A DNA stretch of 64,000 nucleotides, from NCBI GenBank assembly GCA_026770705.1, contig JANJGN010000038.1, positions 7,564,001 to 7,628,000 on the forward strand, given 5' to 3'. The notes under the pieces are model-generated. The model worked only from the letters and a program-made list of their open reading frames with translations, made no database searches and was not told where the DNA came from. Of this stretch, positions 2,912 to 26,590 are shown in pieces. This DNA comes from Isurus oxyrinchus. Lineage: Eukaryota. A program made the position numbers and the translations under genes. Position 1 is the first letter of the stretch. Each line of letters opens with the position of its first letter.

Positions 2912-3480
2912 TGTTGTGATCACTTTGACAAAGGGACCACAGCAGTCTCAGGTACAGTTCACGATCGTTTATTCGACTAATGCAGCTTGAGATAGAATTC
3001 TGCTAAACTACAGGTTTTCACCATATTTATACACAATTGATCACGTATAAGAACAGTTTCCAGATTCTGATCTCGTCAACATAGAGATTTACACTAAACA
3101 GACATCTCCCTAGTAACAAAAGCACCAAAGTAAAGGCACCATCTGTCCCTACTTTCACCCCCAGCGGAGACCTTCCCTCCCATCTCTACTAGGACCATCT
3201 GCTCTTTCCCTATCTGCTATAAACAGACCCAATCTTGTTTGTTTTTCAAACTAAGGCTCCGGGCTCACTCCTAAGACACCCAGTCTATCATGTTTGCATT
3301 CCTCACTGTTCGGCCTGGCCTTGCTGATGGTCACAGGCTCCGAGGGTGTGCAAGGTTCAGATTCCTCTCTGTCCAGCTTGGCCTTTAACTATACTTGAAG
3401 GCACTGGCTGCTTGGATATTTTAAGTAGTCCACTTCCTTTCAATTAGTTCTTAATGTATCCCCTATAATACCCCCTTACA
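2912..3480 (-). repeat. 3' LTR (569 bp)
   Basis: tgttgtgatcac...cccccttaca, a direct repeat of 13949-14537 (6 mismatches in the first 62 bp). Minus-strand AATAAA near 2970 and TATAAA near 3030. Confidence 0.92.
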
Positions 3481-3492
3481 GTCCCTCCTTTT
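3481..3492 (-). other. Polypurine tract
   Basis: Minus strand AAAAGGAGGGAC immediately before the TG of the 3' LTR. Confidence 0.85.
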
Positions 3493-3649
3493 GGCTCTTG
3501 GCCGAGCCCAAAGTAGCCATTTACAGTGGTGCTGTCCGCCCTCTTTACGAACCGCCACCCATTGAAACAGGCAAGTTATCTAGCTTTGGTGCGTAAAAAG
3601 TACTGGTCAGACCATCTGTATCATACTTTAAACCTTTGACTTTCCAAAT

Positions 3650-5470
3650 TCCTTCTCTACCTGTTAAAACTCCCCCAGCGCCGCATTTTCTCTGACTTCC
3701 GGTTGCAAAGAATCAAGTGTGTTAGATACATAAATAATATCAGTTGAAGTATAACGAAGGCATGGGAGATAATCCGAATCCAGGGGCGTATCTGTACGTT
3801 TGTGCCCCAGTTTCACCACCACCATGTCGAGAAACCTATTTGCTCGATATCCTCTTTTAAGGTTCTGACCTGCCGCTGCAGTGTATGGGAAGTTCTGTAT
3901 ATCTGCTCAGACTGTCTACGAATCGTGGTTAGCTGCTCGGGTAATAAGGGAATTTCAAAGGAGAAATGGTTCAAATGCTGTCAGGTAGTTTTAAGGCTTT
4001 CCTTGATCTGAATAGTAGTCGTTCCTCTCTTGTATATTTCGACCAGTTCCACCTTCCCTACACTTGCTTTCGCCTGTCAGTGTAGGCACACTGAATGATT
4101 ATGGATGGCGCATATCTGGTTGTTCCTGTATTGGATCTTCTGCTGCCACGTGGTTATAGAATATCTCCCAATCCCCGTGTATGCAACAGGGGTCGCTTCT
4201 TTTGCAGCCCATATATTTTCCATTATACACTTTGCTGCTGCTTTAAATCCACTTAGCTTAACGTGTCTCATATATTGAGTGTGCATACCACTGTGGTGGC
4301 CTCTTCCCTACACTCTTCTGATGTGGTGCTAACTGTATACCCTTCTATGTCTAATGCATATGGTAGAATGTCGTGATACCTAATATAATAATCTTCCCAT
4401 ATAGCCCCAATATGTTCTACTTTATATAATGTCCTGCCGGGTGTTGACATAGGTATGACAAATATTACTAATACAATGCCTATTAGCTTATTACTATTCA
4501 CTATACATTCAACATTCATTCTAGGGTCAAGTCATGATCCATTTGTCGTGAAAGATTACATAAATGTTCATTAGTTATCCATAAAGGAGCTACTCTTTCA
4601 TTAATCTGTCTTAAATTCTCTCGGGCTTGTTCCAGTGCCCAAGATCCATAGGTGCTACAAACATCCTTTCTGCTCACTTCGTCTGGAATATGTTTCCCTA
4701 TTTCAATCAGTTTGCTGATTGTCCCCACATTACTTTTGAGCACGGCAGCCAGGCTGTGGATTAATCCTGTCATGTCCTGGTCTGTGTTTAATTGGATGTT
4801 AGGAATTCCCTGTCCCCACTCTAGAACCTCCTTCAGCTTAAATCTCAGGGTCTGGAGCTTCTGGTCAACAGTTGCTAGATTCTGATTCAACCACTGATGT
4901 CCCTATATTGAATATCATAGAGGCATAATTTATCAAGCTACGCTTAACACAGTTCTCTCCCAAGCCTGATCGCATCTCGCCATTGAGCTGAGATGCTTCA
5001 GTCAGCAGCTGGCCCACTAGAGCCGTAAATAGTGCTCGAATATGGGTTGAGCACCACGGGGGCGGGGAAATCCAGGATATGTTCAATACTACGGGTCGTG
5101 GTGTACATTATCATACAAAACCTGTGATTAACCAGTACCAAAGCATTCGTCTGTCGTGGATGCATAGTCGGGCAAGCTGGGTCAGTCGGTGTGATTTGAG
5201 AGGTTTCAATTATCTCCACTCAGACTGTGGAAGTAGATGTGGGAGGTGACTGGCTAGTGGTATTAATCTCCACATTTGGGAGGACCTCCCGCGCCCGATC
5301 GGAAGCAAACCCTTACTATCATTTAAAAGCACTTGTTCTCCTACTGTAACATTTATCATTCCCTGTTGCGTGTCACATTCGGCACTGTCCATGCTGTACC
5401 TAAGTTCCTCCTGTGGTGCGGGATGAGCAGGGATGAACCCCGACCTTTTTGTAAGTACTGATCCGCCCAT
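3650..5470 (-). pseudogene. env: Retroviral env-like glycoprotein remnant (frameshifts and stops)
   Basis: Lies between integrase and the PPT. Fragments: CVKR|SLINYASMIFNIGTSVV (basic cleavage site plus hydrophobic peptide), heptad-like NQNLATVDQKLQTLRFKLKEVL, IGIVLVIFVIPM...LYKVEHIGAIW, and a W-rich segment followed by TM-like WIRIISHAFVILQLILFMYLTHLILC (~3790-3705). Lower boundary approximate. Confidence 0.75.
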
Positions 5471-5499
5471 GATCAGGATCGTGGGCCTGTGGAGACATT

Positions 5500-6150
5500 A
5501 ACATCTGCTCCCATTCTCCGTGTAACCGCCTGGTTAATTGTCATCTATCTTTAACTGTGTGTAATGCCTCCATTTATGTCTCTTTCTCATTTCTACAAGT
5601 GTGCATGTATCACCTGCCTTAATTACCTCGTATGGTCCATGCCTGTGCGCTCCAAGCTCACCTTGACAATCACCTTATTCCCCACTTGGTCCACTTTTGC
5701 TCATCGTATTGGCCTGTTTCCATGTCCTTAATCACCTGTTGGTCTCTGACTTCTTCCTCAACTCATCCAATTGCTTATTTATTTCCCTCAAATAGTCTTG
5801 CAGCTTTCCTTTTTGTGGTCCTACATCTCCCACTACTACTATGATTCCCTAGGGTAACTGCATTGCTCTCATTGTCATTATTTCAAATGGGACGAACCCG
5901 GCTGTCCTACTTGTAGTAGCCCTAAGGCGCATTAGAACATTACGCTGTTCCCTGTCTCTTGAATTGCTTTTGTGATTGATGTTTTCTTTAAAGTATAGTT
6001 TACCATTTCCACCATCCCCGAGCTCTGTGGCTGGTAAGGAATGTAGAATTTCTGTTTATATTAACCTTTATGCATTTCTTTAATAACTCTTCCTGTGAAA
6101 TGAGTTCCCTGATCTGAATTTATCTGGACAGGCACCCTCCACTCCTTCCT
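5500..6150 (-). pseudogene. pol: Integrase core and C-terminal remnant
   Basis: PVQINSDQGTHFTG, KFYIPYQPQSSGMV, VLMRLRATTSRTAGFVPFEIM and the GPY/F motif HGPYEVIK, in shifting frames. Confidence 0.85.
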
Positions 6151-7825
6151 ATCTACTGTCTCCTGCTGCTGTCCCACATCGGACCTTAATTTCTTAAACT
6201 GCCTACACAATTCTACAATGCACCTTCTTATCCTATCTTTCAATGGCTCAGTGTCTTCACTTCCAGTGACAGTTCTCTCTGGGAGCCGCTTAACTTCCTG
6301 TCATCATATTGTTAATTCCATGGTCTTACTTTTTGTTTTTCACGGTCACATTAATACAATCAGTAATACATCTATTTCGCCTTTTACCAGCTTTCCCTTT
6401 ACTTGTATCCTTGTGGTATATTGTTGTTGAGTATTATTTCTCCTTACATCTCAATTCCTGAAATACAGATTCCACATAGTTCTACCTCTAAGTATTTTTC
6501 CCCTGACCATGATCATCCTAAGGTTCTCTTGATGCCAGTTTCTCTATTGTTTTTATCGTTTATAATGTCTCCTTGCTTTTTAGGCCGTATTAACTATTCC
6601 ATATCACCGAGGATATCTGTCTCTAGATCTTTGCTTATTTCTTCCTGTGCGTTTCGAATGTCTCAGCTGATGGCCAGATTATCAATTTCAGTTCCCTTAA
6701 AACAGTTTGTATATAGTGTTCTCTTTCCCTAACCATGTCTCCTACTTGCCTCATGCCATTTTACACATGTAACAGCTACATTATTCTCTTGTTCATGTTG
6801 CCTGGATAGACGTTAAAATAAATAATATATAACAGTTTTAATAACAGAAATTAGGCATTGATATGTTCCTTACCTTCATCTCAACCAGCATTTTATTGTC
6901 TCAAAAGTATCCCACTAAATTGTGTCTGACCCGTTTCTTAGAATTATCCCAGATTCATTAACTCGGCCAAAATTGGATTTCTGCCAAACTTTGTCAAGGT
7001 CTTGAACTTCATATTTGGGAACAGACTTACAAATACAAAAGCTTGCAGCATGTGAATTATATCCAATTGTAGTCAAACTTTTAAAAATTAAAATTCCCTT
7101 TGAGAAATTATCAGGAACCAAATCTCAAAATTTTTAACTTTGTAAGAAATGTAATTTACTTTATCAAAATTAAAACTACCTTTTTCTATGTGTTTTGATT
7201 TGTATCCAAGTTATACCTCCCATATGTTTATCAACACATTCTTTACCTTTGGATAGCATCCTCTTTATTCAAAGTAACCTGTTAAATTACACTGCACTTT
7301 ACAAGTCAAGCCTTGTCTCAACTTTAAATAACAGTGCTGTTGGCATGCAGATTTCCTTTCATATTTAATTAATCTCTTGAAGAGAAACCCCCTTTTATCC
7401 ATTGGAATCACATAGACTGTGTGTTTATGCCTTTTGGTTTTCCTAGAATTCCTTGAAATTTAGGTAACCTTTTTTTACTGCAGAATATTATAACACAAAG
7501 TTGTATGAGTTAATACAACTCGTCTGTATCAATCCCAATCATCTTGGAAGCTGGCGATGCTAGTCTGAAAAGGGGTGGTAGGTACAAAGATTGGTTCATC
7601 TAACCCTGCCTAGCTTCATGATACCTTCAAATTGCGACGCCTTTTGCCAGAAATCTCATCTCAAACCTTATACTCAAAACTTTGGAATGTTTGAGTGTAC
7701 TTTTCCTTTAATGTAACCTGGGGCTTTCAACCCTAACGTGCTAAATTGCACATACACATGACAATTTACAGAAGAAAACACATTAAAGCTCACGTATGTG
7801 AGTAGAACAAATATGTAGGCAAATT

Positions 7826-10259
7826 TCTGTTTGTAAGAACAAGAGGGCAATAGTAGTAGGAGACTTCATCTATCCTAATAACAACTGGGATTCATACAAT
7901 ACAAGGGGCACTGAGGATGAAATATTCAGGCAGTGTGTCCAGGAAAGTTATTTCAACCAATTAGTGACAAACCCAACGAGAGGAGATGTAATACTAGACC
8001 TTGTCTTGGGGAACGAAGAAGTGATCTGACAGTTGGCGACCATATTGAGGACAGTGATCACAATTCAGATAGATTTAGCATTACTATGGAAAAGGACAGA
8101 GATAAGGCAGCAGTATGGGGGAATTCAAATATATCTGAAATGAGAAGGGACTTGGCTGAGGTTGCCTGGACAGCAGTGCTGGAGGGTAAAACAATGGAAA
8201 ACAAGTGGGAAGCACTAAAAAGCGAGATCCTAATTGTACAAAGTAGACATGTCCTTGACAAAAATAAGAGTGGTACTACTAAATCCTGGTTGTCTGGAGG
8301 AATACAGGGGAAGATCAAACAGAAAAAGGAATTGTACGATAGGCACAAAGAACTAAGCACTGCAGATAGCATACACAAACAAAGGAAGTGCAGGGACGAA
8401 GTAAAAAAGGAAATAAGGAAATCAAAGAGAGGGCATGAAAAAAGATTAGCAAGTAAAGTTAATGATAATCCACAGATGTTTTACCAATACATTATTAGTT
8501 AAGAAAAAAGTGGGACCTATCAGAGATGAAGATGGAAATTTCTTTGCAGATGCAGAGGCTGTGGGAAGGGTTTTGAATGAATATTTCGTCTCTGTGTTTA
8601 CAAAGGAAAGGGAGGACGTAGATATAGTAGTCCAGGAGGAACACTGTGAGATATTGGACGGGATAGTCACAAAGAGGGAGGAAGTACTCGAACGATTGAT
8701 ATCCTTGAAAGTTTATAAGTCTCCAGGGCCAGTTTCCGAGGCTGCTGAAGGAAGTCAGTGAGAAGATAATAGATGCTCTGAGGATGATTTTCCAATCTTC
8801 ACTAGATACAGGGGAGGTGCCGGAGGACTGGAGAAATGCAAACATAGGTCCATTGCATGAAAAGGGATAAAACGAAATACCAAACAATCAATGGCCATTT
8901 AGTCTTACATCGGTGGTGAGCAAATTAGTAGAATCAATCCTGAGAGATAGGATTAACTGTCATGTGGAAAAGCATGGGCTAGACAGGGATGGTCAGCATG
9001 GATTTGTCAAAGGAAGGTCTTGCATCACAAATTTGACTGAATTCTTTGAGGAAGTGACAAGATGGGTTGATGAAGGTCGTGCAGAAGACGTTGTGCACAT
9101 GGATTTTAGAAAGGCATTTGACGAGGTCCCACATGGCAGATTGGTCAGGAAGGTAAAAGCCCATGGGATTCAGGGTAATGTGGAAAACTGGATAAAAGGT
9201 TGGCTTTGTAACAGGAAACAAAGGGTAATGGTCGATGGATGCCCTTGCAAATGGTAAGTGGTCTCAAGTGGTGTTTCACATGGCTCGGTGTTGGGACCCT
9301 TGCTGTTTAGACGTGACCCTGGAGGGCACGATTGGGAAATTTGCAGATGATAAAAACATTGGCCGAGTAGTGGATAGTGCAGAAGATAGCCATAATCTCC
9401 AAAATGATATAGATGGGTTGGTGGAGTGGGTGGTAAAGTGGCAGATGGATTTTTACATAGAGAAGTGTGAGGTCATACATTTAGGGAGGTCAAACAGGTA
9501 CAGGGATTTCTAAATAAGTGGGAATATACTAAGAGGGGTAGACGAAGTGAGAGATCTTGGCGTTCAAGTACACAGGTCCCTGAAGGCAGCAGTTCAAGTA
9601 GACAAGGTTGTAAAGAAAGCATATGGAATGATCTCCATCATTAGCAGAGGTATGGACTTAAAAGTAAGGATTTAATGTTGGAATTGCATGAAACACTGGT
9701 GAGGCCACAACTGGAGTACTGTGTGCAGTTCTGGTCACCACATTACAGGAAGGACGTAATAGCTCTGGACAGAGTGCAGAGGAGGTTTACACAAATGTTG
9801 CCTGGGTTAGAAAAGTGTTGCTACGAGGAGAGATTGGATAGGTTGTGGCTATTTTCCTTGGAACAAAGAAGGCTGAGAGGTGACTTGCTTGAGGTGTACA
9901 AAATAATGAGTGGAATAGATAGAGTGGACAGGATAAGATTGTTTCCCTTGGTGGAGAATTCTAGGGCATATAGATTTAAGATAAGTGGCAGAAGGTGTAG
10001 GAGGGACATGAGTAAGAACTTTTTTATGCAGAGGGTAGTGGGTGTCTGGAATTCACTGCCCAAGTTGGTGGTAGAGACAGAAACTTTAAACTGTTTAAAA
10101 AAGTACCTGGATCTGCACCTTAAGTGCTGTAAACTGCAGGGCTATGGGCCGGGTGCAGGAAGGTGGGATTAGAAAGGGCACCTGGGTGTCCTCGGGCTAG
10201 CATGGACAAGATGAGCTGAATGGCCTCCTTCTGTGCTGTAACTTTTATATGTTTCTATA
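7826..10259 (+). mobile_element. CR1 LINE ORF2 (5'-truncated, frameshifted), inserted in the ERV
   Basis: APE motif IVVGDF; QHGFVKGRSCITNLTEFFEEVT; DFRKAFDEVPH; KFADD; LVRPQLEYCVQFWSPHY; 3' tail 'gaatggcctccttctgtgctgtaac'. Confidence 0.92.
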
Positions 10260-10549
10260 CAAATGCTTCATTGCACACAAGCAAACTTACATTTAGAATT
10301 ATGTATTTATATTCCTGTATCCTTAACAACGACTTAAAACTCTCATATTCTAAATGAAACTTCAAATAGCAATGGAGAAATAAAGGGATCTTGAAGGCAC
10401 CACCTTTAAGGACCATCAAACTGACGAAAGCTCACAGTTCCCCTGCTACTGCCTGTCAGTGCTTATTAATCCTCTAGGGGTAGGCCCCTTTTCTCTCTCT
10501 CTCTCTTCAGCACAAGCAGCTCTTGTAACTTAGATCAATTGAATATTAA

Positions 10550-11674
10550 GTTACAGAAAATTCAGTGGTGGACCTATTGGGTACCAATCATCCTTCCAGA
10601 TTTTCAGGAAAATCTGTCATATCGCACCAGACATTATACGCACCCAATTTGTCTCTCCATCCCTCAAGGCTTCCTCAATTGCCTCCTCAAAGTCCCTGTG
10701 CTGGGCTGTCGCCTTCTCCCGATCTGGGATGTGCCCAGGTTTCGCCCAATCTCCGCTTCTAAACTGTATGGCCAATCATCCCCAAATATCCCCTGGCACT
10801 TCGCCTTCACCAGTATGTGGTTATCAAGGGGGTGCATTGCATTTCCCCTAGTTTGGTTCAAAAATCTGGTTTGTTATGCCGAGTTTTAAGTCTCAGCAGT
10901 TCTTTCAGCAAAACCTGCTTCTCCCCCGGGCTTAATGGTACGTGCTGAACTTTCTCCTTAACACTCTCCATCTCCTCGTCCTTCCTCCATTCCTCAGCCT
11001 CCTTTCTCCCTTCGGTTTATTATTAGCCTTTCGTGGCTATACTTTTCCTAACAGTTACTGCCACAGTGGCCATGGGATTCAACGGGCAAAGTGGGGTGGT
11101 TGGTTCGTATGAGGTCGGTTTTGTCGCAACTCCATCATTGGTTTCTGCTTTGGAGCTCTCTCCCTTTTGATCAGTGTCACTACAAGCTGTCGCCACTGCT
11201 CTGATCTGTCCTGATTCTGACCCTGTCTCTCTCTGTCTAATCGACTGGAATTTAAGATTAATCTGCCTACACAACTGCAGGGACAAGATAATAATAACCA
11301 TCACCCCTTTCTTTTCCTTATACTTTTTCTGCTCTATACACCACTGTTTTTGTACTTCGGGGGTTCCCTGTGGATTCCACCCCTCCTTCTGCATTTTTGT
11401 GATTAGTTTGGACTGCTGGTCCACTATGAACCTCCTAATGGAACCCACGGTTCCCCAGTTGAGTTCCATAGCACTGTTCTGTTTCCCTGACGGCACACTG
11501 TTCTTATTCCCATCTATCTCTGCGCGGGACATTTGCACGGCCCTAATAACTTGCTTACTTGTGGTATGTGTGGTTTCATTTATTTCACTTGGGTCTATCC
11601 TCCCTGCGTGGCTTTGGCTCAGGCTGATTTGAAACCTTAACCCGCCAGCACGGATCTGCCTCTCTTTAACTGGG
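10550..11674 (-). pseudogene. gag-like remnant of the ERV (N-terminus continues at 13633-13688)
   Basis: First long frame after the PBS/leader (220-aa ORF 11023-11685 plus downstream fragments). Removing the Penelope-like insertion joins ATG 13688 (MA*NITIIEAAQGDQT-PVKERQ) in frame. The assignment is positional; no diagnostic capsid motif was recognised. Confidence 0.55.
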
Positions 11675-11782
11675 ATAAAAACCAAAAAAAAAAATGCGGA
11701 TCCTGGAAATCCAAAACAGAAACAAAAACAGAATTACCTGGAAAAACTCAGCAGGTCTGGCAGCATCGGCGGAGAAGAAAAG

Positions 11783-11821
11783 AGTTGACGTTTCGAGTCC
11801 TCATGACCCTTCGACAGAACT
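11783..11821 (-). ncRNA. Minimal type I hammerhead ribozyme-like motif (variant core)
   Basis: AGUU-CUGUCGA-A-GGGUC-AUGAG-GACUC-GAAACGUC-AACU: stem I AGUU/AACU, stem II GGGUC/GACUC, GAAA, palindromic ACGU stem III and GUC triplet. The core has U at the conserved A6. Confidence 0.6.
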
Positions 11822-13521
11822 TGCGTTCGAGTCCAAGAAAGAGTTGAAATATAAGCTGGTTTAAGGTGTGTGTGTGAGGGGCGGAGAGAGAGAGAGGTGG
11901 AGTGGGGGTGTGGTTGTAGGGACAAACAAGCAGTGATAGAAGCAGATCATCAAAAGATGTCAACAACAATAATACAAAAGAACACATAGGTGTTAAAGTT
12001 AAAGTTGGTGATACTATCTAAACGAATGTGCTAATTAAGAATGGATGGTAGGGCACTCAAGGTATAGCTCTAGTGGGGGCGGGGAGAGCATAAAAGATGT
12101 AAAAGAAATATAAAATAAATAAATAAATATTTCTTTTTCTTTTTCTCTTTCTATAATGGAAATAGGTGGGAAAAGGAAAATCTACATAATTTATTGGAAA
12201 AAAAAAGAAAAGGAAGGGGGAAACAGAAAGGGGATGGGGATGGGGGAGGGAGCTCACGACCTAAAGTTGTTGAATTCAATATTCAGTCCGGAAGGCTGTA
12301 AAGTGCCTAGTTGGAAGATGAGGTGTTATTCCTCCAGTTTGCGTTGGGCTTCACTGGAACAATGCAGCAAGCCAAGGACAGACACGTGGGCAAGAGAGCA
12401 GGGTGGAGTGTTAAAATGGCAAGCGACAGGGAGGTTTGGGTCATTCTTGCGGACAGACCGCAGGTGTTCTGCAAAGCAGTCGCCCAGTTTACGTTTGGTC
12501 TCTCCAATGTAGAGGAGACCACATTGGGAGCAACGAATGTAGTAGACTAAGTTGGGGGAAATGCAAGTGAAATGCTGCTTCAGTTGAAAGAAGTGTTTTG
12601 GTCCTTGAACGGTGAGGAGAGAGGAAGTGAAGGGGCAGGTATTGCATCTTTTGCGTGGGCATGAGGTGGTGCCATAGGAGGGGGTTGAGGAGTAGGGGGT
12701 GATGCAGGAGTGGACCAGGGTGTCCCAGAGGGAGCGATCCCTACGGAATGCCGATACGGGGGGGGGGGGGGGGTGGTGGGGTGAAGGGAAGATGCGTTTG
12801 GTGGTGGCATTATGCTGGAGTTAGCGGAAATGGCGGAGGATGAACGTAAACTGGGCGACCACTTTGCAGAACACCTGCGGTCTGTCCGCAAGAATGACCC
12901 AAACCTCCCTGTCGCTTGCCATTTTAACACTCCACCCTGCTCTCTTGCCCACATGTCTGTCCTTGGCTTGCTGCAGTGTTCCAGTGAAGCCCAACGCAAA
13001 CTCGAGGAACAACACCTCATCTTCCGACTAGGCACCTTACAGCCATCCGGACTGAATATTGAATTCAACAACTTTAGGTCGTGAGCTCCCTCCCCCATCC
13101 CCACCCCCTTTCTCTTTCCCCCTTCCTTTTCTTTTTTTCCAATAAATTATATAGATTTTCCTTTTCCCACCTATTTCCATTATAAAAAGAGAAAAAGAAA
13201 AAAAATATATTTATTTATTTTATATATGTTTTTACATCTTTTATGCTCTCCCCACCCCCACTAGAGCTATACCTTGAGTGCCCTACCATCCATTCTTAAT
13301 TAGCACATTCGTTTAGATAATGTCACCAACTTTAACTTTAACACCTATGTGTTCTTTTGTATTACTGTCGCTGACATCTTTTGATGATCTGCTTCTATCA
13401 CTGCTTGTTTGTCCCTACAACCACACCCCACTCCACCTCTCTCTCTCTCTCTCTCTCTCCGTCCCCCACACACACACCTTAGACCAGCTTATATTTCAAC
13501 TCTTTCTTGGACTCGAACCCA

Positions 13522-13560
13522 AGTTCTGTGGAAGGGTCATGAGGACTCGAAACGTCAACT
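13522..13560 (+). ncRNA. Minimal type I hammerhead ribozyme-like motif (variant core), inverted copy
   Basis: AGUU-CUGUGGA-A-GGGUC-AUGAG-GACUC-GAAACGUC-AACU. Confidence 0.6.
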
Positions 13561-13888
13561 CTTTTCTTCTCCGCCGATGCTGCCAGACCTGCTGAGTTTT
13601 TCCAGGTAATTCTGTTTTTGTTTTTGTTCTGCTTAACTGGGGTTTGGTCTCCCTGTGCAGCTTCGATTATTGTTATATTTCAAGCCATAATCCGCCTGCA
13701 CGGCTTTGCCTCCTCTGTTTGGTCATGGTCCGGCCTTCCTGTATCTCTTTGGCACCGCTAGCCGGCCTTCGCGGCTCCGCCTCCTACCCTGGCGCCTCCT
13801 ATCTCCTGTCCTGAGTCCTCCTCCAGATTGTTTGATACTTGACCGGACTGTTCTCGGGTAGGCTTACTTACAGGTGGTAAATAAATAT

Positions 13889-13894
13889 ACTCAC
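13889..13894 (-). promoter_or_regulatory. Candidate retroviral major splice donor
   Basis: AGG|GTGAGT about 40 nt after the PBS, with a second GTAAGT at 13871-13866. A matching acceptor 'ttaatgtctccacag|' at 5487 lies just before env ATG 5470. Confidence 0.45.
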
Positions 13895-13931
13895 CCTCTG
13901 TGCAGAGTCGCCCAGAGGATCCGATCCAAGT

Positions 13932-13948
13932 ATCTTGCTGACTACACC
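13932..13948 (-). other. Primer-binding site, tRNA-Ser-like
   Basis: GGTGTAGTCAGCAAGAT directly after the 5' LTR. It matches 14/17 to the complement of the vertebrate tRNA-Ser(AGA/TGA) 3' end (GGCGTAGTCGGCAGGAT, recalled from memory); two of the mismatches are CpG-type transitions. Confidence 0.7.
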
Positions 13949-14537
13949 TGTTGTGGTCACTTTGACAAACGGACCACTGGAGTCTCAGGTACAGGTCATG
14001 ATCGTTTATTGGAGCAATTGAAAGGAGAGAACCATCCCAATGCAGTTTGAGATAGCACTCTGCAAACTTCAAGTGTTAACCATATCTCTACATTATTGAT
14101 CACATATAAGAACAGTTTCTAGATTCCGATCCCATCAACATATAGGTTTACATTAAACAGATGTCTCTCTAGTAACAAAGTTACCAAAGTACAGACATCA
14201 TCTGTCCCTACTTTCACCCTGGCGGAGGCCTTCTCTCCCAACTGAACTAGGACGATCTGTTCTTTCCCTATCTGATATAAACAGGCCCAATCTTGGTTGT
14301 TTTTCAACCAAAGGCTCCGGTCGGACTCCTCCAACACCCAATCTATCACATTTGCATTCCTTTATGTTCGTTCTGGCCTTGCTGATGGTCACAGGCTCTG
14401 AGGGTGTGCAAGGTTCAGCTTCCTCTCTGTCCAGCCTGGCCTTTAACTATACTTTCAGGCACTGGCTTCTTGGATATTTTAAACAGTTCATTCACTTACA
14501 ATAAGTTCTTAATGTACCCCTATATTCTCCCCTAACA
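13949..14537 (-). repeat. 5' LTR (589 bp)
   Basis: tgttgtggtcac...cccctaaca; direct repeat of 2912-3480 with an ~20-bp indel near 14011-14038. Confidence 0.92.
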
Positions 14538-16850
14538 CCCCCCATCGTGTTTTGTGGCACTAGCTTAATGGGGTAGATTTCGAACAGATCCAGCAAGTCA
14601 AAACTGGGCATTCATGCGGTGCTGTGGCCCATTAGCAGCAGCAGAATTGTACTTGAGTACAATCTGTAACCTCATGGTCCAGCATAATAAAGGCATACAG
14701 GAAACTGATTTTATTAGCCCATGCATAGAATACAAGGGCAGGGACTTTAATAGGGAATTGTATAAGACGTTGGTTAGACCACAACTGGAATACTGCATGC
14801 AGTTCTGGTCACATAATGGGAAAGATATAATTGCACTAGAGAGGATCCACTCGGCTGGAGCGTCTGAGCTTGGAGGACAGATTTCATAGGCTGGGTTTGT
14901 TTTGCTTGGAGCAGCAAAGTTTGAGAGGGGACCTGATAGATGAATATAAAATGAAGGGCATAGATAGGGTGGATAGGAAGTCACTTTTTCCATCAGTACA
15001 GGGGTCAAAAACCAGGGGGAATGGATTTAATATAAGAGGTAGAAGGCTGAGACGGGAGTTGAGGAGAAATTCTTTCACCAGAGGGGGTGGGAGTCTGCAA
15101 TTCACTGCCTGAAACGGTGATTGGGTCAGAAAATCGCATAACATTTAAGAAGTATTTAAGTATTCACTTGCGTTGCCTTGGTCTCCGGGGCCATGGGCCA
15201 AGCGCTGGAAAATGGGATTAATGTTGTCAGACCTTCGCCGACTGGCACAGACACGATGGGCCAAATGGCCTCCATCTGTGCTGTCGACTTATATGAGTCC
15301 ACAAGCCTATATCACCCATTCTATCATTACCATCAAACCAGGGTTCCAACTATGGTTCAATGAAGAATTCATGAGGGCATGTCAGGAGCAGAACCAGGCA
15401 CACCTAAAAAAGAGGTGTCAACCTGGTGGAGCGATAACACAGGGTTACATGCGTGCCAAACAGCATAATCAGCAAGTGATAGGCAGAGCTAAGTGGTCGC
15501 GCAACCAATGGATCAGATGTAAGTACTGCAGTCCTGCCACATCCCGTCGTGAATCGTGGTGGACAATTAAACAACTCACTGCAGGAAGAGGCTGCACAAC
15601 CATTCCCATCCTCAATGATGGAGGAACCCAGCACATCAATAAAATAGGCAAGGGTGAAGCATTTGCTACAATCTTCAGCCAGAGGTGCCCAGTGGATGAC
15701 CCATCTTGGTCTCGCCCCAGAATCACATATGCCAGTCTTCAGCCAATTCGATTCACTCCACGTGATCTCAAGAAAAGGCTGAAGGCATTGAATTGTACAA
15801 AGGCGATGGTCCAGGAAAATATTCCGTCAATAGTACTGAAGACTCGTACTCCAAAACTTGCCAAGATGCTCCGGTATGTCTGCAACACTGGGTTCCTCAG
15901 GGTAGTGTCCTCGGCCCAACCATCTTCAGCTGCTTCATCAATAACCTTCCTTTCATCATAAGGCCAGAGGTGGGATGTTTGCTGATGATTCCACAATGTT
16001 TAAACACAATTCGCGACTCCTCTGATGCTGAAGCAGTTCGTGTCAAAATGCAGCAAGACCTGGACAATAACCTGGCTTGGACTGACAAGTAGCAAGTAAC
16101 AATTGCGCCTCTCAAATGACAGGCTATGTCCATCTGCAACAAGGGAGAATCTAGCTTCCGCCTGTTGAGGTGCAATGGCATTGCCATCGCAGACTCCCCC
16201 CCCCCCCCCCCACCCCCCGGTATCAACATCCTGAGGGTTAACAATGTCCAGAAATTGAGCTGCAATAGACATATAAATACTTTGACGACAAGATCAGGCC
16301 GCAGGATGGGAATCCTGGGACGAGAAACTCACCTCCTGACTCCCCAAGGTCTGTCCACCAATCTACAAAGTACAAATCAGGAATGTGATTGGACAATCTC
16401 CATTTGCCTGCATGAGCGCAGCTCCCACAGCACTCAAGAAGCTGGAGACCATCACATCCGCAAACAGTTACCCCCTGCATCACAGTAGCAGTATTGTGCA
16501 CCATCTTCGAGATGCACTGCAGGAATTCAACAAGGCTCCTTCGACAGCATCTTCCAAGCACATAGGCACTGCCATCTAGAAAGACAAGGGAACTAGATAT
16601 AGGGGAACGCCACCATCTGGAAGTTCCCTTCCACGTCACTCACCATTCTGACTTGGAAATATATCGCCTTTCCTTCACTGTCGCTGGGTGAAATACCTCG
16701 AGCTCCCTCCCTAACAGCACGGTGGGTGCACCTACACCACACAGAATGCCAAGTTTCCAGAAGCTCGCTCACTAGCTCAAGAGCAATTAGGAATGGGCAA
16801 TAAATGCTGGCCCAGCCAGCGAAACCCACATCCCGTGAACGCAAATTAAA
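14538..16850 (+). mobile_element. Continuation and 3' end of the tRNA-headed LINE (contains a CR1 fragment at 14686-15300; internally deleted RT)
   Basis: WWTIKQLT, IPILNDGG, VPQGSVLGPTIFSCFINNLP, QQDLDN; 3' end 'gcaattaggaatgggcaataaatgctggcccagccagcgaaacccacatcccgtgaa'. Confidence 0.85.
14686..15300 (+). mobile_element. CR1 LINE 3' fragment
   Basis: ELYKTLVRPQLEYCMQFWS, LRGDLI, and a CR1-type tail 'gatgggccaaatggcctccatctgtgctgt'. Confidence 0.85.
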
Positions 16851-16999
16851 TGCCAGGGCATCCACTGACCCTGGCACTTTTAGGCGCCCAGGTTATATGC
16901 CAACAGGCCCTGGGAACTTGTCGGACTTCCGGGTTTTTTTCTTCAGTAATTTTTCTGCTGATATAACTTACCTTAATTTATTCACTCTTAAAAACACTT

Positions 17000-19900
17000 A
17001 TGTTAACCAATATTTCTGGTGAGCACCTTGTGATTTCCATTGCGCACTGCACACAACTGATGTATTCAGTAACTCTGCCATTTAGTCATTCCCCATAACA
17101 AATTTCCCTGACACTAGTAGGTGTTTACTTCAGCTACTTTTATTTTTTTTAACTTGTCAAAGTTTTTACAATCGTTTTTTATGCTCCTGTCTAGTTTGCT
17201 CTGACTTTGAATACTTTCCCTCCTTTTTAATAACTTTCAGCTGACCCTTTCATGATTTGTAATACAATCTCAATCCTCAGCCTTGCTCCTACTCTTTGCA
17301 GCAATATAAGTTTCTATTTTTAATCTGATGCTATCTTAACTTCCTGCTTAATACTCGGATGTGATTTTTCTTGCTGAGTTTTTGGTTTTTCAATGGAATG
17401 AATTTTTTCGATAAATCTGAATTATTCTTGAAATGGTTTCCACTGTTTATTAGCTTCCATTGCTGTAATTATATTGCCCAAACCACACTTATCCAGCCCT
17501 CTCCCCATTCTAAACAATTGGTTTTGTTTAAATTGAATGTAACTGTTTGGTAGAATATGTCGCACTCATGCTTAAATTGGAACTTAAATGCATTACAGTC
17601 ACAAGTTCCGGCCGATCTTTAACAATGAGATTAATAATTAACTGTGTCTAATTTTCCGCAACACATTGTTCCAAAGAAATATGCATCTACTTGACGACCC
17701 TTGTCACTTTGTTAAGCCCTATTTTTATGAGGATTAAAGTTCGTCAGTTTTATTAAATTGCCTTTGTGACACGTTCCAACAATTTCTTGTTTAATGTTCT
17801 GTGCAACTGTTAGGTTCTCCTAGTAGATGTATAAGCTCCTCCCACCACTCTCTTTGTCCAAAATATTCACCTAACCAGATTCCACTACATGATCTTCTGA
17901 TCGAAGGCCCTTGCTCACTAAGGTCCTTATATCATCATTTACTATCAGTCCCCCTTGGCAATTGAGTCTGCATTTTAGAAATATTGCGTAGCCTGGAATA
18001 TTATTTCACAACCTTGTTCACCGTGCAGCTATGTTTCTGTATTGAAGAATAGCTGTTAATCATTGATCTCGATTTGTGACAATAGTTCATCGACTTATCG
18101 TATTGTGGGTGTTTTTTTTTTGCATCCTGATAAGGATAATTTAATTTCATGTCGGCTACTATTGCCGTTATTTTTTCACTTTCTGATGCAGGATTACTGT
18201 TCAATTCTTTGCACCTTCCTGATCCACTCTGCTGATTTTTAGTTTGTTCCATTGCCTTGAGTTTTATCTTCATATTTCGATATCTCCCTTCACACCGACA
18301 CTGCTCCCACACTACATTTGACGATCTACCTGAAACCCTAGTTATACAGTTCACCATGACACTGCCACCAGCCATGTTTCAGCACAGCCTGTGCCAATTA
18401 AACAATCCTGTCTTTAATGGGTGCTTGTGCCGTTACCCCATGAATTGAGACCCCTTATTCACACACCACTCTTTGCGCCAGGAGATGAATTATCTATTCT
18501 GTTTGAACCTATGCTAATATCATGTCGGTCAGAATGGCTTTGACGTTCTGCATTTTAATTTCAATTCTAACTGCTCTCTTAGAAGAACTTGATTCCTAAT
18601 TCTACCACAATAACTGGATCTCCCCCTTTCCCCATCCCCCATCCCCGAAACTTCACATTTGCCTGAAGCTGCGAGGCAGTGTCCCTCACCCTGGAAACGA
18701 GCAGTTATACGAACGTAAGAATAAGGAGCGGGAGAAGGTTATTTGATCTTCGAAATTGCTTTGCCAATCAATAAGACCATGACTTATCTGATAATAACCT
18801 CAAAACAGCAGCCCACCTACCCGAGATTGCCTAAAACCCCCATACTTTCCAAGAATCTGTCCACCTTAACCATTAAAATGTTGAAATACTCTGCTTCTAA
18901 GGCCTTTTCCAGAAAAGAGTACCAAAGACGTACGACCCCCTTGGAGAAATTAATAATTGAATCACCTCCATTTGAAATGGGCGACTCATTTTTTCTTAAC
19001 AGTTACCTTGAGTTATGGATTCTCCTACAAAAGGAAACATCCTCTCCAAATACACTCTGTCAAGACCCCTCAGTTCCTTCTATGTTTCAGCCCAGTCACT
19101 TCTTACTCTTCTAAACTTCAGCGGATACAAGCCTAGCCTTTCCAACATATCCTCATTAGACAACCCTCCCGTTCCATGTATTAGCCTGGTAAGCCTTCTC
19201 TGAACTGCTTCCAACACATTTACAGCCTTCCTCAAAAAAACGTGATGAACACTGTGTACAGCATTCCTGGTGTGGTGTCACTAGTGTCCTGCATAACTGA
19301 AGCGTAACCTCCCCACTTATGTGATCAATTCCCTCCCAATTAATGATAACATTCTATTAGTTCTCCTAACTACCTGATGTGCTACATACAATCCTTTTAT
19401 GATTCAGGCACTAAGTCACCCAGACCACTCTGCACCTCAAAGTTCTACAGTCTCTCAAAATTTGGATAATGTGCCTGTCTTTTATTCTTCCTGACAGAAT
19501 GGACAATTTCACATTTTCTCACGTTATAGTATATTTGCCAGATCTTTTCCCACTCAGTTAACCTATTTGTATTTTTAGCCTCATTATGTGCTCTTCACAA
19601 CTGTGTTTCTGACTTAACTTTGCAGCATCAGCAAATTTGGCAACATTCCCACCCATCACTTCATCGAAGTTATTTATATAAATTATATATCGTTGAACCG
19701 CCAGCACTGACCCCTGTGGCACAACACTCGATACATCCTGCCAAGCTGAAAGGGCCCATATATGCCTCCTCTCTTCTTCCCGTTAGCCAGTCAATCTTCT
19801 ACCCATGCCAAAATGTTATCCCTTTACCATGAGTGCTTTTATTTTACGCAATAACACCTGATTTAGCACTTTATCAAATGTCTTCTGCAAATCTAAGTAC

Positions 19901-20620
19901 AGAACATTCACCAGTTCCCCTACATCGACAGCACATGTTACTCCCTCAACGATTAAGCACAACCTTCTGAGCTTCAAGCCGCAGCTGCAAATGACAGCGT
20001 CTACACCTAACTGTACATCGCTCAGGCAGTACTACATTTATTTCCACTACACTACTCCGCAGCCCGTTACCACCCCACACCCATTGAATGCTTTCCTGCA
20101 CCCTGGAGCCATCCTCACTTTGTTCTACAAACTACAGTCTTTCTGCTCATTCAAATAGTTTGCAAGCACTTCGGTCTCTTGGGCAAATTCATGGGCTCAG
20201 AACATCCCATCAGTATCCACAGCATCCTGATCCATGCCTATCTCACAGTCATAACCCGCTGTCTCTGGTCATCGAAAGACTCTAACTTTCTACCTGACAT
20301 AAAGGGGTGACAGTGCCTCCTGGAACACAATGTCCAGGGACTAATCCCCCCTCCATGATTCGACACATCATATGGGACTCTGGCTGCTGCTTGCTTTGGA
20401 ATGCCTTTAAGGAGCGTATCTAAAAGTACTATATACCATCAGAGTGATTGTGATGCATATGCTCAATTAATCATCACGCTGAAGATATGAGCAGCTGGAG
20501 AGACAGGACCTGTCAAGGGACTTTCAGAGATAGGCGCATGTGGTTTCACTGCTTGAAATAAAAGCCCACATAATTATGTTACCAATCTTCTTGGTTGAGG
20601 TATCTGTGTAACGCAGAAAC
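17000..20620 (-). mobile_element. Old, highly decayed CR1-like LINE (ORF1/APE region)
   Basis: Residual endonuclease-region and ORF1-like motifs. The homologous copy at ~35500-37400 lacks 18445-20133. Boundaries approximate. Confidence 0.5.
18705..19950 (-). mobile_element. CR1 LINE 3' fragment (present only in unit A)
   Basis: Reverse-strand RT and tail motifs: 'gcactttatcaaatgtcttctgcaaatctaagtac' (DLQKTFDKV), 'gcagcatcagcaaatttgg' (KFADA) and tail 'gaacgtaagaataaggagcgggagaagg'. Confidence 0.8.
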
Positions 20621-21229
20621 CACAACATTGCTTAACAGATCAGAGGTGAGGTCACTCGAAGAGATTTAGTTCTCCAGGATTGCAATCATTCCACAGATTC
20701 TGATGTTTTTGAGTTACAGCACACCAGCATCACTGTCATGTTTGAATAATCATATTTAATTAACCAATAAAATAGATACTAATCGATACAGCTAAACTAA
20801 TAGCAAGCTATGCCCCATAGCGTTTTGGCAGAAGAAAAAACCTACCAGCCACTGAAGGCCCCAGATGGTACAAAAAGGACACCTCCTTCTCCCTTTGCAC
20901 TGATTTCCCACTTACACCAAATTTCCAAATTGGCTTTTTTTCCTCGTTGCAGGAAAGCCTTGTGATCTCACTTTGTCGTCTCACTCTGTATACTTCTCGA
21001 AAGAGAGAGAGCAGATGGCTCAAACCAAAATGCAAATGCTAAGTCAGCTTTCTGCTTTGGTAAATAACATCTATTCGGGTAGCAACATTCAGTTGGCTGA
21101 CTGTTAACTGAACGTGACATAGCCGTTTCTGTTAACTAGGCTTCTTAACTAGCATGCCTAGGTTTCATACCAGACAGTGACTTCTAATCTAAATTCTATC
21201 TTGTGAAACACTTACCAGAGAGATTCCTG

Positions 21230-23365
21230 TTGTATGGCACCTATCACCGTGTTATTGGGATTGATTTCCAATACATCTTGCAACTTTAAACTGGACAGTC
21301 TATGAGGCAATGTGGACCATCACCAACAGTGGATATCTATTCAACCGCAATCTATAACCTCAGGGCCCAGCAAATAGCCCCCTACACCACTACCATCAAA
21401 TCAGTGGATCCAAACTATTTGAACAAAGAGTTGAGGTGGGCATGGCTTTGGCAGAATCAGGCAGGCCTAAAATTGAGGTGTCAACATGGTGAATAGAGAA
21501 CACAAGATACTTGATTGCCAAAGAGCAGAAACAGCATGCGATCGAGAGAAGTAAGTAATCGTGCAACCAACATGTCATATTGAAGGTCTGCAGTCCTGCC
21601 ACATCCAGTTAAAAAAAGGGCTTGGATAAGTCAACAATTAACAAGACGATGAGAATCCATAAATACCCTCATCACCAATAACAGGCGAGCCCAGAACATC
21701 AGTGCAAAAGACAAAGCCGAATCATTTGCAACAATCTTCAGTCAGAAATGCTCAGTGGATGGTTGAACTCTGCCTGCTCTTGAGGTCAGCAGCATCAGAA
21801 GAGAGAGTCTTCAGCCAATTTGATTCACCCCACTTCATGAAAAAGCTGCTGAAGGCTCTGGAAACTGCAAAGGTTTCGGGCCCTGACAACATTCCAGCAA
21901 TTGCGCTGAAGTCTTGTCCTCCGGAATAAGCTGTACCCCTAGCCAAGCTGTTCCAGTGTATTTGGAACGCTGGCATACACCCCGAAAAGTAGAACATTTC
22001 CTATTTTTAGCATGTGCACAAAAGAAGTGACAAATCCAACACGGCCAATTACCCCATCATCAGTTTACTCTTGGTTATCAATAAAGTGATGGGAGGTGTT
22101 TTCAACAGTGTCACAAAGAGGTGTTCATTGACGCTCAGTCTGTGTTGCATCATCGCTACTCAGCTCTGAACGCCATTGCATTCTAGAACCAAATATGAAC
22201 CAGAATTGAACAAAAGAGGTGAGATGAGAATAACTGCTGTTGACATCAGGGCATCCTTTGACCGAGTGTGGCATTAAGGAGCCCTCAAAAAACTGGAGTC
22301 AATGGGAAACTGGTAAGAGTCATACTTAGCACAAAAGAAGATCATTGTGGTTTTTGAAGGTCAAACATCTTCGTCCCAGGATATTCCTGCAGGAGTTCCT
22401 CGGGGTAGTGATCTCGGCCCATAAATCTTCCGCTGCTTCATCAATGACCATCCTTCCATCATCAGGTCAGAAGTGGGGATGTTCGCTATTGATTGTACAA
22501 GGTTAAACAAGAATATCCGCACCACAGATAATGAAGCAGCTCCTGGCCTTGGGCAGCAAGAATAGGACAACATCTAGATTTGGGCTGATAATTTGAAACT
22601 AACATTCGTTCGATACGATTATTAGGCAATGGTCATCTCCAATATGAGAGAATCTAATCATTTCCGTCTGAGAATCAATGACATTACTATCACTGACACC
22701 TCCAGTATCAACATTGTGGGGATTAATATTGGAGAGAATCTGAACTGTACCATCCAGATAAATAATTTGGCGAAAAGAGCAGTTCACAGGTTAGGAACTC
22801 TGCAGTGAGAAACTCACCTCACCCCCACCAAGAACTGTCCACGATCTACAAGGCACAAGACAGGAGTGTGATGGAATATCTGCCCAGATAAATGCAGCTC
22901 CAACAGCACTCACGAAACTCCATAACATCAGGAAATGGAGCCCCCTTCAATCGCAACTTATTCACTCTCTTAAACAGTTACTCCCTCCATCAGCGACAGG
23001 TAGTGACAGCAGCATATACAACACAAAATGAACTTCAGCAATTCACGAAGCGTCCATCGAGAGCAAACAAACGCTTGACCTCTGCCACCTTGAAGGACAA
23101 AGTCTGTAGATGAAATGGAACATCACCGATTGCAAGTTACCCTCCAAACCACACGCCACCCTGACTTGGAAATATGTTGCTGTTGCATCCATGCTGCTGG
23201 GCCAAAGCCCTCTAACTGCCTTCCTGACATAAATGTTTTAGCACATACACCAAGTGGGCAACTGCATTTCATTAAAGCGGCACATCACCAGCTTTCAAGG
23301 GCAATTAGGGATAGTCAATAATAACTTGCGTAACCAGAGAAGCCAACTTGCCATTAATAAATCAA
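21230..23365 (+). mobile_element. Decayed copy of the same APE-RT LINE family as 1873-16850 (5'-truncated)
   Basis: GPDNIPAIALK, 'gcaggagttcctcggggtagtgatctcggccc' (GVP-GS-LGP), and the same 3' end 'gggcaattagggatagtcaataa'. Confidence 0.8.
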
Positions 23366-24329
23366 TAATTCGCAGCTGCTCCAAGTTCAGGACTAAGCTC
23401 TCATTCCTTGTTGCATAACGGCCTATTCATCTCAAGTGATGTTCCCACAGAATGCAGTTAATAAATCTAACTATATTGAATCATAAGCGACGCTTCAATA
23501 AATTGATGATTGTTCATTCAACAAATTAATTATCAGAACATAGCTGCTAAGAGTGAATACTCATTACCTAAAGAATATATGTGGACCTTGTTTAAATTTC
23601 TGATATGTTGCTGAATAATTAGACCTTATAAATTTTCCAGATTATTTCCCAAGTTCTCTTCATTCATCCAAGATAATGTTGTTCTAATCAATTAAATAGC
23701 TGCAATAATAAATGGGGGTTAATAAGCTCATTGTTCAATTGAATTGCATCTCTCGTTATTTCTATTTTTGATGTTTTATATTAATGATATTTACAGGTGA
23801 GTTGCATTAACCTAATAATTGGAGCAATCAGAAACTTGGACAAATTGTATGAGCTAAACAAATGTTAGAAATAAAGATGGGACACTCGTTTTTTTAAAAA
23901 ATAAAAACAACGGTGAATTTCAGCATCACACGTATTCCAACACTTGCGTGTACAGAGTATAAAATAATGACTAAATAATAACACTGTAGCAACATATAAA
24001 ACAAAGATGAATATTAAATGTATTGTTGAGAACATGCAATCTCCACATGACTAGCAACGGGCGTAAGTTCCCAATGTTTCTAACATTTCATTTAGACAAA
24101 TCACTGCAAATATTGCCATTACAGATAAAGTAAACGAAGGACCTTGAGCCAATGTGGAACAACAACGTTAAGGTGCAGATCAACCATGATCTAACTGAAT
24201 GCAAAAAAATACCTGTCCGTATATGTTATAATTTTCACTCAGTTTACGTCGTAATTGTTCAGAACATCAAATATCAGTGTTTGTATCTGAAATAGTATAA
24301 TTCAGAAAATTCACTTTCTAGATTTGGGC

Positions 24330-25790
24330 AACGATGTTTTATGGAAAAGGCTGTGGAATTGCAAGCATTATGCCCCTGTTCAAAAAATGTGGTCAGAATA
24401 ATCCCAGTAATTACAGACCAGGCAGCTTAACTTAAGCGGTGGGCAAGATTCTGGAAAGAAAAATTATTACAGATGGAATTAGCAGTCACATGCAAAAATA
24501 ATGGTTGATAAACAAGAGCCAGCATGGATTTCTCAGGGGGAAATCGTGTTTAACGAACTTGCTGGAGTTATCTGAAGAGGCGACAGAAAAGGTCAATGAG
24601 GGTAATGCTGTTTAAGTGGTGTGTATAGACTTTCAAAAGGCATTTGATACAGTGCTAATCAACAGACATGTGAGAAAAGTTATTGCCCATGGAATAAAAT
24701 GGACAATAACAACGTCGATGCAAAATTATGTGAAAAAAATAGGAGGCAGAGACTAATGGTCAATTGATATTGTACCAGTTGGAGGGAGGTTTGCAGTGGA
24801 GTTCCCCAGGGATCGGCACTGGGACCTTTGCTTGTCCTGATATATTTTAATTATTCAGAGCTTGGTGTGCAGGGGTGAATTTGAATGCTTGCGGATGATA
24901 CTCAGCTTGGGAGTGTTGTAAACAGCGAGGAGGACAGTGCAGAACTTCAAGAGGACATAGCCAAGTTGATGGACTGGGGAGGTAGGTGGCAGATGAAGTT
25001 CAATGCGGAGAAATGTGAAGTGTTGTATTTTATAGGATGACTATTTACAGACAGTCTAAATAAGGGATAAAATTGGAAACAGGGTGCAGAAGCAGAAAGG
25101 CCTCGGGTGTATATGAGCATAGATAGTTGAATGTGACAGGGTGGAGAGAGAAGTTAATGAAGCAAACGGTATACTGGGTTTTGCTAATAGGGGTATAATG
25201 TACAAGAGCACGGAGGTTAGCTGATTTTATATATGACGCTCGCGAGGCCTCAGCTGGAGCATTATGTACAGTTCTTGGCGCAACATTATAGGAAGGATGT
25301 AAACACATTGGAGAGAGTGCAGAGGAGGTTTACAAGAATGGTTCCACGGATGAGAATCTTCAGCTATGTGGATAGATTGAAGAGGTTCAGACTGTTCTCC
25401 TTGGAGAGATGAAGGCTAAGAGGAGATTTAATAGAGATGTTCAAAATCACGAGGAACCTGAACAGATTAGATAAGGAGAAGCTGTTGCTGGTCATTAAAG
25501 GATAAAGAACGAGAGGACAATGAAGCAACTGTGACGTGGGAGAAAACACTTTCAGGCAATAGTGGTTTGGGTCTGGAAGGTGCTACCTGGTATTATAGAG
25601 GAGGCAGTTTCAATGGAGGTTCAAGAAGGCATTGGATATTTGTTTTGAATAGAAACAATGCGCATGGGTACAGGGAAAAGGCAGGAGACTGACACTAGGT
25701 CGTTATGCTCATTTGGGGAGTCGGTGCAGACACGATGGGCCGAAAGGCCTCCTTCTTTGTCATTATGATTTTGTGGTCCTGTTATATTGG
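24330..25790 (+). mobile_element. CR1 LINE RT/3' fragment
   Basis: SQHGFLRGKSCLTNLL, DFQKAFDTV, GVPQGSALGP, LADDT; CR1 tail 'gatgggccgaaaggcctccttct'. Confidence 0.85.
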
Positions 25791-26590
25791 TTCTCCCTTC
25801 TTGTGTCCTTAACGGATTTTCTTTAAACGTGTTAAAACATTGGCTAGAAATAGATCTTCAGTGGAATTGATTTGGAGGCATCAGGGATCACAGAGCAACA
25901 AGCCTCCAGAGTAGTCCACAAACAAGGGTTTTGTTTTTAAACATATGTTTCAGGAATCTATGTAGCTAACAAGCAGTCAGATCTGCCTTTAGTTTCCATT
26001 GGTTCTCTAAAAGGATGTAAGCCCGTGCGACTGTGCCAGAAATCAATGTCTATGTTATTTGCATGATGCTGGTAAGCAAAGATGCAATGCTGTGCTCCTC
26101 TGGGAGCTGTATATGAGATATGCACAAAACGTTTTGAAAATTTGCTCAGCTACGCAGCACTAATTAAATAATTTCCACATTCAAATATGGTCTATTAACA
26201 ATTCTGGAACAAATGCCAGTAGATAAAGTCTTTCCTTAACAAAATGAGATTATCAGTATAAGTGGTGACCAGATGAGTGCTTACTATTACTGCAGATCTT
26301 GTTTCGAGAATGTATTTTTGGGATTATTCACATGTGTGTTTCCATTTCCTAAAGGGAATGCTTGGACCTTCTGTAACAGCTGGCGAGCCTTAACTCATCC
26401 CAGGACAAGGACAGGTTCCACAAGCCTGGTGGGTTGTCTGCGAGCTCACGGACGTGGTAAGGGCGTTTTTCTTGTTAATTTTCAAATTCAAATTGTCATA
26501 AAATATTTTAAAAATGACTGAGACAGGAAACAATCCTACTATTTCAAAAGTAGTACTAACACATAGCGGCATTCAATGTTTTCTTCTCAA

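Follow-up and report, generated by a model that had tools for sequence, protein, structure and literature searches.

The 64,000-nucleotide stretch of DNA analysed here (positions 7,564,001 to 7,628,000 of contig JANJGN010000038.1 from Isurus oxyrinchus, hereafter the window) carries, on the minus strand at 2912-14537, an 11.6-kb provirus with the order LTR-PBS-gag-pol-env-PPT-LTR: paired long terminal repeats (LTRs) enclosing a primer-binding site (PBS), remnants of three retroviral genes and a polypurine tract (PPT). With these retroviral hallmarks and a target-site duplication in place, the element is an endogenous retrovirus (ERV; Retroviridae in the wide sense). It probably joins a gag and integrase backbone of the snakehead-retrovirus (SnRV)-like group to an envelope protein (Env) of the paramyxovirus fusion-protein (F) type. 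The retroviral features of the provirus are as follows:

2907-2911, no strand: target-site duplication, left copy, 5 bp, four of five bases matching the right copy
2912-3480, minus: 3' LTR, 569 bp, TG...CA, with AATAAA at LTR position 508
3481-3492, minus: PPT, AAAAGGAGGGAC, adjoining the 3' LTR
3660-4238, minus: last env segment, with internal stops: a beta-rich stretch, a predicted long helix, a transmembrane (TM) helix and a short tail
4232-4531, minus: env segment with a Y-K-V-x-x-I-G-x-x-W anchor and a C-x8-C pair, aligning by eye with lokiretrovirus (loki) Env
4516-4902, minus: env segment after the fusion peptide, with a stretch resembling heptad repeats and, by eye, a counterpart of the loki G-R-I-P-x-Y-L-V anchor
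4865-5497, minus: N-terminal env segment, with internal stops; about 182 codons precede KR↓S (4945-4937; the arrow marks cleavage), followed by the fusion peptide
5549-6141, minus: integrase catalytic core and C-terminal domain with GPY motif, frameshifted
6142-7608, minus: heavily decayed pol-side interior, with no reverse transcriptase (RT) or tether detectable
10470-11480, minus: gag remnant, whose N-terminal 66 codons (11475-11284) match the Gag of retroviral locus L001 (see below); capsid remnants near 10935 and 10697 are weak
13932-13948, minus: PBS, Ser-type, directly next to the 5' LTR
13949-14537, minus: 5' LTR, 589 bp, TG...CA, with AATAAA at LTR position 528
14538-14542, no strand: target-site duplication, right copy, 5 bp

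A preliminary description, made from the sequence alone, had reported paired LTRs of about 570-590 bp, a Ser-type PBS, a PPT and an integrase with a GPY motif, and all four were found. The LTRs agree at 484 of 566 aligned bases and differ by 42 transitions and 40 transversions (Kimura two-parameter distance 0.16); a local alignment counted 488 of 567, and blastn matched the pair at E 9e-170. The flanks CGCCC/CCCCC form a 5-bp target-site duplication with one mismatch. We take the PBS to be the complement of the 3' end of tRNA-Ser; searches of the sequence gave no Rfam match and no tRNA gene. By eye, this PBS matches 14 of the 17 positions of that printed for CmiERV scaffold 2, from the elephant shark. 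The Ser-type PBS is therefore no mark of an unknown lineage, being common to a published SnRV-like shark ERV.

On the minus strand, the env region (about 5487 to 3660) is broken into four or more frame segments and interrupted by stops, and a splice acceptor is likely, from the sequence, near 5487 at its start. The motif KR↓SLINY lies at 4945-4925 and the TM helix at about 3779-3705 (hydropathy 2.29), leaving 387 codons between cleavage and TM, close to the roughly 380 codons estimated earlier. A scan of the three minus-strand frames of 3600-5560 found no C-x6-CC, QNR or LQN, with decay as a caveat to this negative, and the single C-x5-CC, at 4206, lies in a frame off the env path. Gamma/epsilon-type Envs are marked by a short TM ectodomain that carries an immunosuppressive domain (ISD) and CX6CC; neither motif was seen in this 387-codon ectodomain, as the preliminary description had noted.

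What the region does resemble is the Env of lokiretroviruses. Eight anchors (the fusion-peptide F-x-I-G, I-P-x-(Y/W)-L/I, P, Y-K/R, G-x-W, C-x8/9-C, a later C and G-x-x-W/Y) follow one another in the order seen in Loki-Bsp Env, with offsets that grow from 6 to 27 codons (by eye), and they recur in seven of eight displayed loki Envs, the eighth being truncated. From cleavage site to TM, the 387 codons of the window env compare with about 402 residues in Loki-Bsp (by-eye count), and the predicted long helix of the last segment may be equivalent to heptad repeat B. Before the cleavage site, the window env has about 65 more codons than Loki-Bsp; beta-strands are predicted in them at low confidence (predicted local distance difference test, pLDDT, 50-57), and the N-terminal part gave no immunoglobulin (Ig) match in Pfam or in fold searches. 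The anchors, co-linear by eye, fit the suggested likeness to the loki F-type protein, and the product of env is likely to have been a fusion protein of the paramyxovirus F type, with lokiretrovirus Env as its homologue.

The backbone points elsewhere. The integrase core matches that of HIV-1 IN (E 5e-8), and a metagenome scan with this core as query confirmed seven loci out of 169 pattern matches; the best two, L001 and L002, share 60% identity with the core and are intact gag-TAG-pol retroviruses, and the weak scan matches L003-L007 and L009-L012 were dropped. L001 has gag, a stop codon and pol in a single frame, with a zinc knuckle, and its Pol contains protease, RT, tether, RNase H, integrase and MLVIN_C domains. 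The best match of this Pol in the PDB is an RT of murine leukaemia virus (MLV) type (276 bits; Ty3 216, foamy Pol 193), and in the Atlas it lies nearest to a Pro-Pol cluster (0.98). Its motifs TRLPQG, FHQ, TGWA and SAQVAELVA are common to SnRV, whereas loki RT has CPFGYxNSP (by eye, from printed alignments).

Two further matches tie the window to L001, both independent of the integrase-core query that found it. L001 Gag matches 11475-11284 (E 0.008 against the window, 7.6e-5 against a 1.45-kb subregion; score 68, reached by none of 200 shuffles), and the L001 integrase C-terminus matches 5656-5549 (again 0 of 200 shuffles). A protein search yielded one candidate, a turtle ERV protein (P0007) with 61% identity over the integrase core; integrase and Pol scans of viral contigs yielded no match. 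The window Gag is, by eye, unlike four displayed loki Gags. Gag and integrase are therefore likely to derive from the SnRV-like group (clade Huo; class III, broadly defined), a closeness judged on sequence from few references (three retroviral integrase sequences), and membership of the loki or spuma lineage, as first proposed, finds no backing in a Gag and integrase that best match L001 and the turtle ERV. As side observations, L001 (664-6012) and L002 (1112-6460) are near-identical, were found in metagenome assemblies and carry SnRV-like motifs; the cluster that holds L001 Gag has 32 unnamed members.

Taken together, we consider it probable that the provirus has an SnRV-clade backbone carrying an F-type Env, acquired by env exchange or kept by ancestral retention. 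The ancestral virus would have primed on tRNA-Ser and, like L001, produced Gag-Pol by reading through a stop codon, with Env translated from a spliced mRNA that may have used the acceptor-like sequence near 5487. If the F-type match holds, cutting at KR↓S would have freed the fusion peptide, and two heptad repeats would then have refolded about a nested core, rich in beta-strands and built from parts of both subunits, in the way described for F and foamy Env (PMC11468914). Because such refolding needs no gamma-type ISD or CX6CC link, it would account both for the long ectodomain and for the missing motifs. As to origin, env could have been exchanged with a loki-like virus; equally, an ancestral F-type Env could have been retained here, with sister lineages such as CmiERV lineage I having swapped to a gamma-type env.

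Several results weigh against this reading. For Env, Pfam Fusion_gly was unmatched in four env pieces and three whole frames, PDB sequence searches with four env queries returned nothing relevant, no Env relative appeared among 200 protein candidates (none significant), and the variable N-terminal env piece had 0 matches in 1.84 billion representatives. Single-sequence AlphaFold models of env were poor (pLDDT 53 and 37), and fold searches with them gave generic helices only. Relatives of Env were also absent from viral contigs, the Atlas gave no usable match and all five exact look-ups were absent; a search of genome contigs with env gave one bacterial match, judged to be chance. Since these Pfam, PDB, protein, Atlas and fold searches were made with broken pieces and were all blank, the F type is something that we infer. 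For the backbone, the Gag match is one among 24 region-frame tests, the capsid matches to L001 are weak (6 of 200 shuffles reach the score, and 1 of 40 in a frameshift-aware test), the SnRV affinity of L001 comes from motifs judged by eye, and no env lies in the 370 bp 3' of L001 pol. The integrase core, identical by eye at 32 of 53 positions to L001, 26 to one loki integrase and 25 to CmiERV lineage I, tells lineages apart only modestly. The RT, which defines lineages, is absent from this copy, and the placement is provisional for that reason.

Against this background, four other readings can be weighed. The provirus could be a genuine shark lokiretrovirus (lokiortervirus), which would widen that group to cartilaginous fishes. 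Of the marks considered—an RT in the Loki clade, an Env like PF00523, a loki-type Gag and an integrase grouping with CGIN1—the env anchors are co-linear with loki Env, and 26 of 53 positions of the integrase core agree with one loki integrase; moreover, published screening had taken in only six chondrichthyan genomes, all negative. However, Gag matches an SnRV-like virus and shows by eye no likeness to the four loki Gags, the integrase is nearer to L001 and P0007 (60-61%), and the window Env is distant from loki Envs, which clearly resemble one another. With the RT lost from this copy, we grade loki membership as unlikely and nothing stronger. It is rather less likely that env is a decayed or unrelated class I envelope, not of the F type, and that the by-eye match arose by chance. 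The blank results of all tool searches for the fold would fit, motifs could have been lost through decay, and neither ISD nor CX6CC is present in the long ORF3 of SnRV-related Ovex1, a product that its authors did not identify; yet the shared order and steady spacing of the eight anchors, along with an ectodomain of matching length, argue against chance, and a gamma-type TM ectodomain, as in CmiERV, is far shorter than that of the window env.

Still more doubtful is a foamy-like ERV (clade Tu) of a cartilaginous fish. Foamy viruses typically prime on tRNA-Lys, whereas the PBS here is Ser-type; no foamy Gag or Env match was found in Pfam, and L001 combines a single-frame gag-stop-pol and a zinc knuckle with an RT-RNase H nearer to MLV. 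The idea draws on the F-like structure and F-type core of foamy Env (PMC11468914), on shark foamy-like ERVs already published and on the integrase of L001, whose best match among PDB integrases is that of prototype foamy virus (PFV; 136 bits), but in the window env the part before the cleavage site amounts to only about 182 codons, where the foamy receptor-binding segment alone occupies residues 225-555 in the accessible part of that paper (PMC11468914). A Ty3/gypsy errantivirus with an F-type env is very improbable: such envs are widespread in invertebrate Ty3/gypsy elements, and gypsy integrases also have GPY, but the nearest relatives of the window element show the retroviral layout of tether, second RNase H and MLVIN_C, and a possible RNase H end, though not above chance, stands just before the window integrase. 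An SnRV-clade backbone with an F-type Env thus remains the reading that we prefer.

Related copies of the element are found in public sequence data. Among 24 runs listed, 20 hold part of 3400-6400; they come from two organisms and six studies, and the best-covering run may be the window's own source sample. In the four runs examined in detail, gag, integrase and env are each overlain by numerous contigs that differ from one another, up to 42 (run X1) and 52 (run X7) at one listed site, and 5855-6410 is spanned by contigs of 81-85% identity. Both organisms therefore harbour the element as a multi-copy family, although copy number cannot be read from contig depth. No RNA run was among those listed as holding the element.

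The copy in the window is dead, a decayed fossil with no sign of function. About 4.6 kb of its 11.6 kb is DNA from an inserted long interspersed nuclear element (LINE) and from Penelope-like elements:

7609-10327, plus: LINE inserted into the provirus, with an RVT_1 match (E 4e-14); contigs of four runs join across it
11712-13631, no strand: inverted pair of Penelope-like (GIY-YIG) sequences, 94% alike over 795 bp, in the leader

The LINE is presumably CR1/L2-like, and since contigs in all four runs join across 7609-10327, other proviral copies are without it. The Penelope-like pair makes a 1.9-kb near-palindrome within the viral leader.

No RT was found in the provirus by tblastn, frame-wise alignment or frameshift-aware alignment with shuffles. 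The capsid remnant and the possible RNase H end are separated by only about 1.1 kb of non-LINE DNA, whereas the corresponding interval in L001 takes up about 2.8 kb, and the RT has therefore been deleted. That possible RNase H end (near 6800-6750) and a possible integrase CxxC (near 6375-6329) are neither clearly above chance; in searches of this copy for tether and RNase H, both present in L001, 22 of 30 and 23 of 40 shuffles reached the scores. Three candidates were rejected: a zinc knuckle near 6775 (score reached by 96 of 200 shuffles), a protease at 6360-6170 (no support in alignment with shuffles) and a protease at 7088-6942 (score 34 against a shuffle maximum of 33, too weak). Where protease and RT are expected, 6800-7608 and 10328-10470 are AT-rich and non-coding-looking, and many contigs cover these stretches in both organisms. 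They may be another repeat or a shared trait of an RT-less subfamily; no terminal inverted repeat bounds the AT-rich 6800-7600.

The LTR differences (2912-3480 versus 13949-14537) include nearly as many transversions as transitions (42:40), with only five transitions at CpG, and beside this divergence a contig from the second organism matches the window env at 282 of 289 bases. Candidate explanations for this pattern are an old insertion and an LTR exchanged with another copy. Dating from the LTRs gave 37, 162 or 368 million years under three borrowed rates and was rejected as an age.

Some 42 kb from the provirus, four Ig C1-set exons lie on the minus strand at 56953-62367. The best single-domain PDB match of the exon at 61541-61918 is shark IgNAR (4q9c, 160 bits), and the four are likely, from their sequence, to be constant exons of an IgNAR gene. 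An IgNAR-like exon in the window indicates a cartilaginous-fish host, in agreement with the chondrichthyan origin proposed in the preliminary description. Between the Ig exons, at 59845-60229, is an imperfect inverted repeat with 153-bp arms that are 78% complementary. Between the provirus and these exons, a tandem segmental duplication of about 17-18.5 kb (15362-34015 versus 34016-52549) is 81-86% identical and holds no Pfam-positive host open reading frame among frames of at least 105 codons.

The value of this copy is as a pointer to its family. Of four scenarios that Wang and Han set out for how retroviruses came by their Env, they preferred independent gains, on the ground that the Env of lokiretroviruses is F-like and that of canonical retroviruses is not (PMC7947760); foamy Env was later shown to be F-like in structure (PMC11468914). 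An F-type Env on an SnRV-clade backbone, if true, would be a third such lineage besides loki and foamy, so that the F-type fusion machine would not be confined to those two groups, and the origin of Env could then be tested by setting RT trees of shark ERVs against their Env trees. Tentatively, an SnRV/Huo lineage with a loki-type F-like Env, set beside a Ser-primed elephant-shark relative with a gamma-type one, may mean either that fusion-protein classes were swapped within one clade in cartilaginous fishes or that the ancestor of retroviruses already had an F-type Env, which the loki, foamy and Huo lineages have kept. Either a swap or an ancestral F-type Env, if true, would contradict the published view of independent, unrelated Env gains. 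We found no published F-type Env on an SnRV-clade backbone, and no loki in sharks, in a search of mainly open-access literature; the accessible parts of PMC12440569, PMC11521997, PMC13709493, 10.1101/2024.03.17.585361, PMC12193657, PMC9040795 and PMC11089739 do not describe the pairing.

Comparison with known systems, again as far as the accessible portions of the cited papers go, places the element beside several groups. One is CmiERV lineage I of the elephant shark, an SnRV-like ERV (Han, 2015, PMC4422223), which has a cartilaginous-fish host, the same Ser-type PBS, an SnRV-like backbone and a similar PPT end (GAGGAC/GAGGGAC). Its Gag N-terminus differs by eye, its integrase core agrees only at the 25 of 53 positions given above, and CmiERV scaffold 2 has a gamma-type env with LQNRMALD and C-x6-CC (by eye), both missing from the window env (PMC4422223). 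Lokiretroviruses are known from five vertebrate classes and from none of six chondrichthyan genomes, and their Env matches PF00523 at 2.2e-7 (Wang and Han, PMC7947760). The F-like layout of loki Env, with its cleavage site, fusion peptide, heptad repeats, TM and a long ectodomain rich in beta-strands, is probably shared by the window env (PMC7947760; PMC9040795); unlike lokiretroviruses, the window copy has KR↓S without a full RXKR and a different Gag, and its nearest relatives carry SnRV-type RT and RNase H.

Clade Huo, which includes SnRV and Ovex1 and infects all vertebrate lineages, would share with the element, by way of L001, the gag-stop-pol arrangement, zinc knuckle, SnRV-type RT and RNase H motifs and GPY-like integrase (PMC6001957; PMC12193657; PMC2717909). 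The ORF3 of Ovex1 is likewise long, without ISD or CX6CC and of an identity that its authors left open, whereas SnRV has a 136-residue cytoplasmic tail and the window env a short one, with no accessory open reading frames seen after env. ERV4 of crocodilians and turtles, reported only there, resembles the element in its 5-bp target duplication and in having an env but lacks the GPY/F motif that the window integrase has as GPY (Chong et al., 2014, PMC4299795); the turtle ERV protein that best matches this integrase is of unknown class. A catshark ERV has been classed as foamy-like, with no Env analysis in the accessible text. Foamy Gag and Env gave no Pfam match in the window, where the roughly 182 codons before cleavage leave no room for the large receptor-binding domain of foamy Env, and the backbone differs; what foamy Env and the window env would have in common is an F-like fusion core in a retroviral Env with a long post-cleavage part (Fernandez et al., 2024, PMC11468914).

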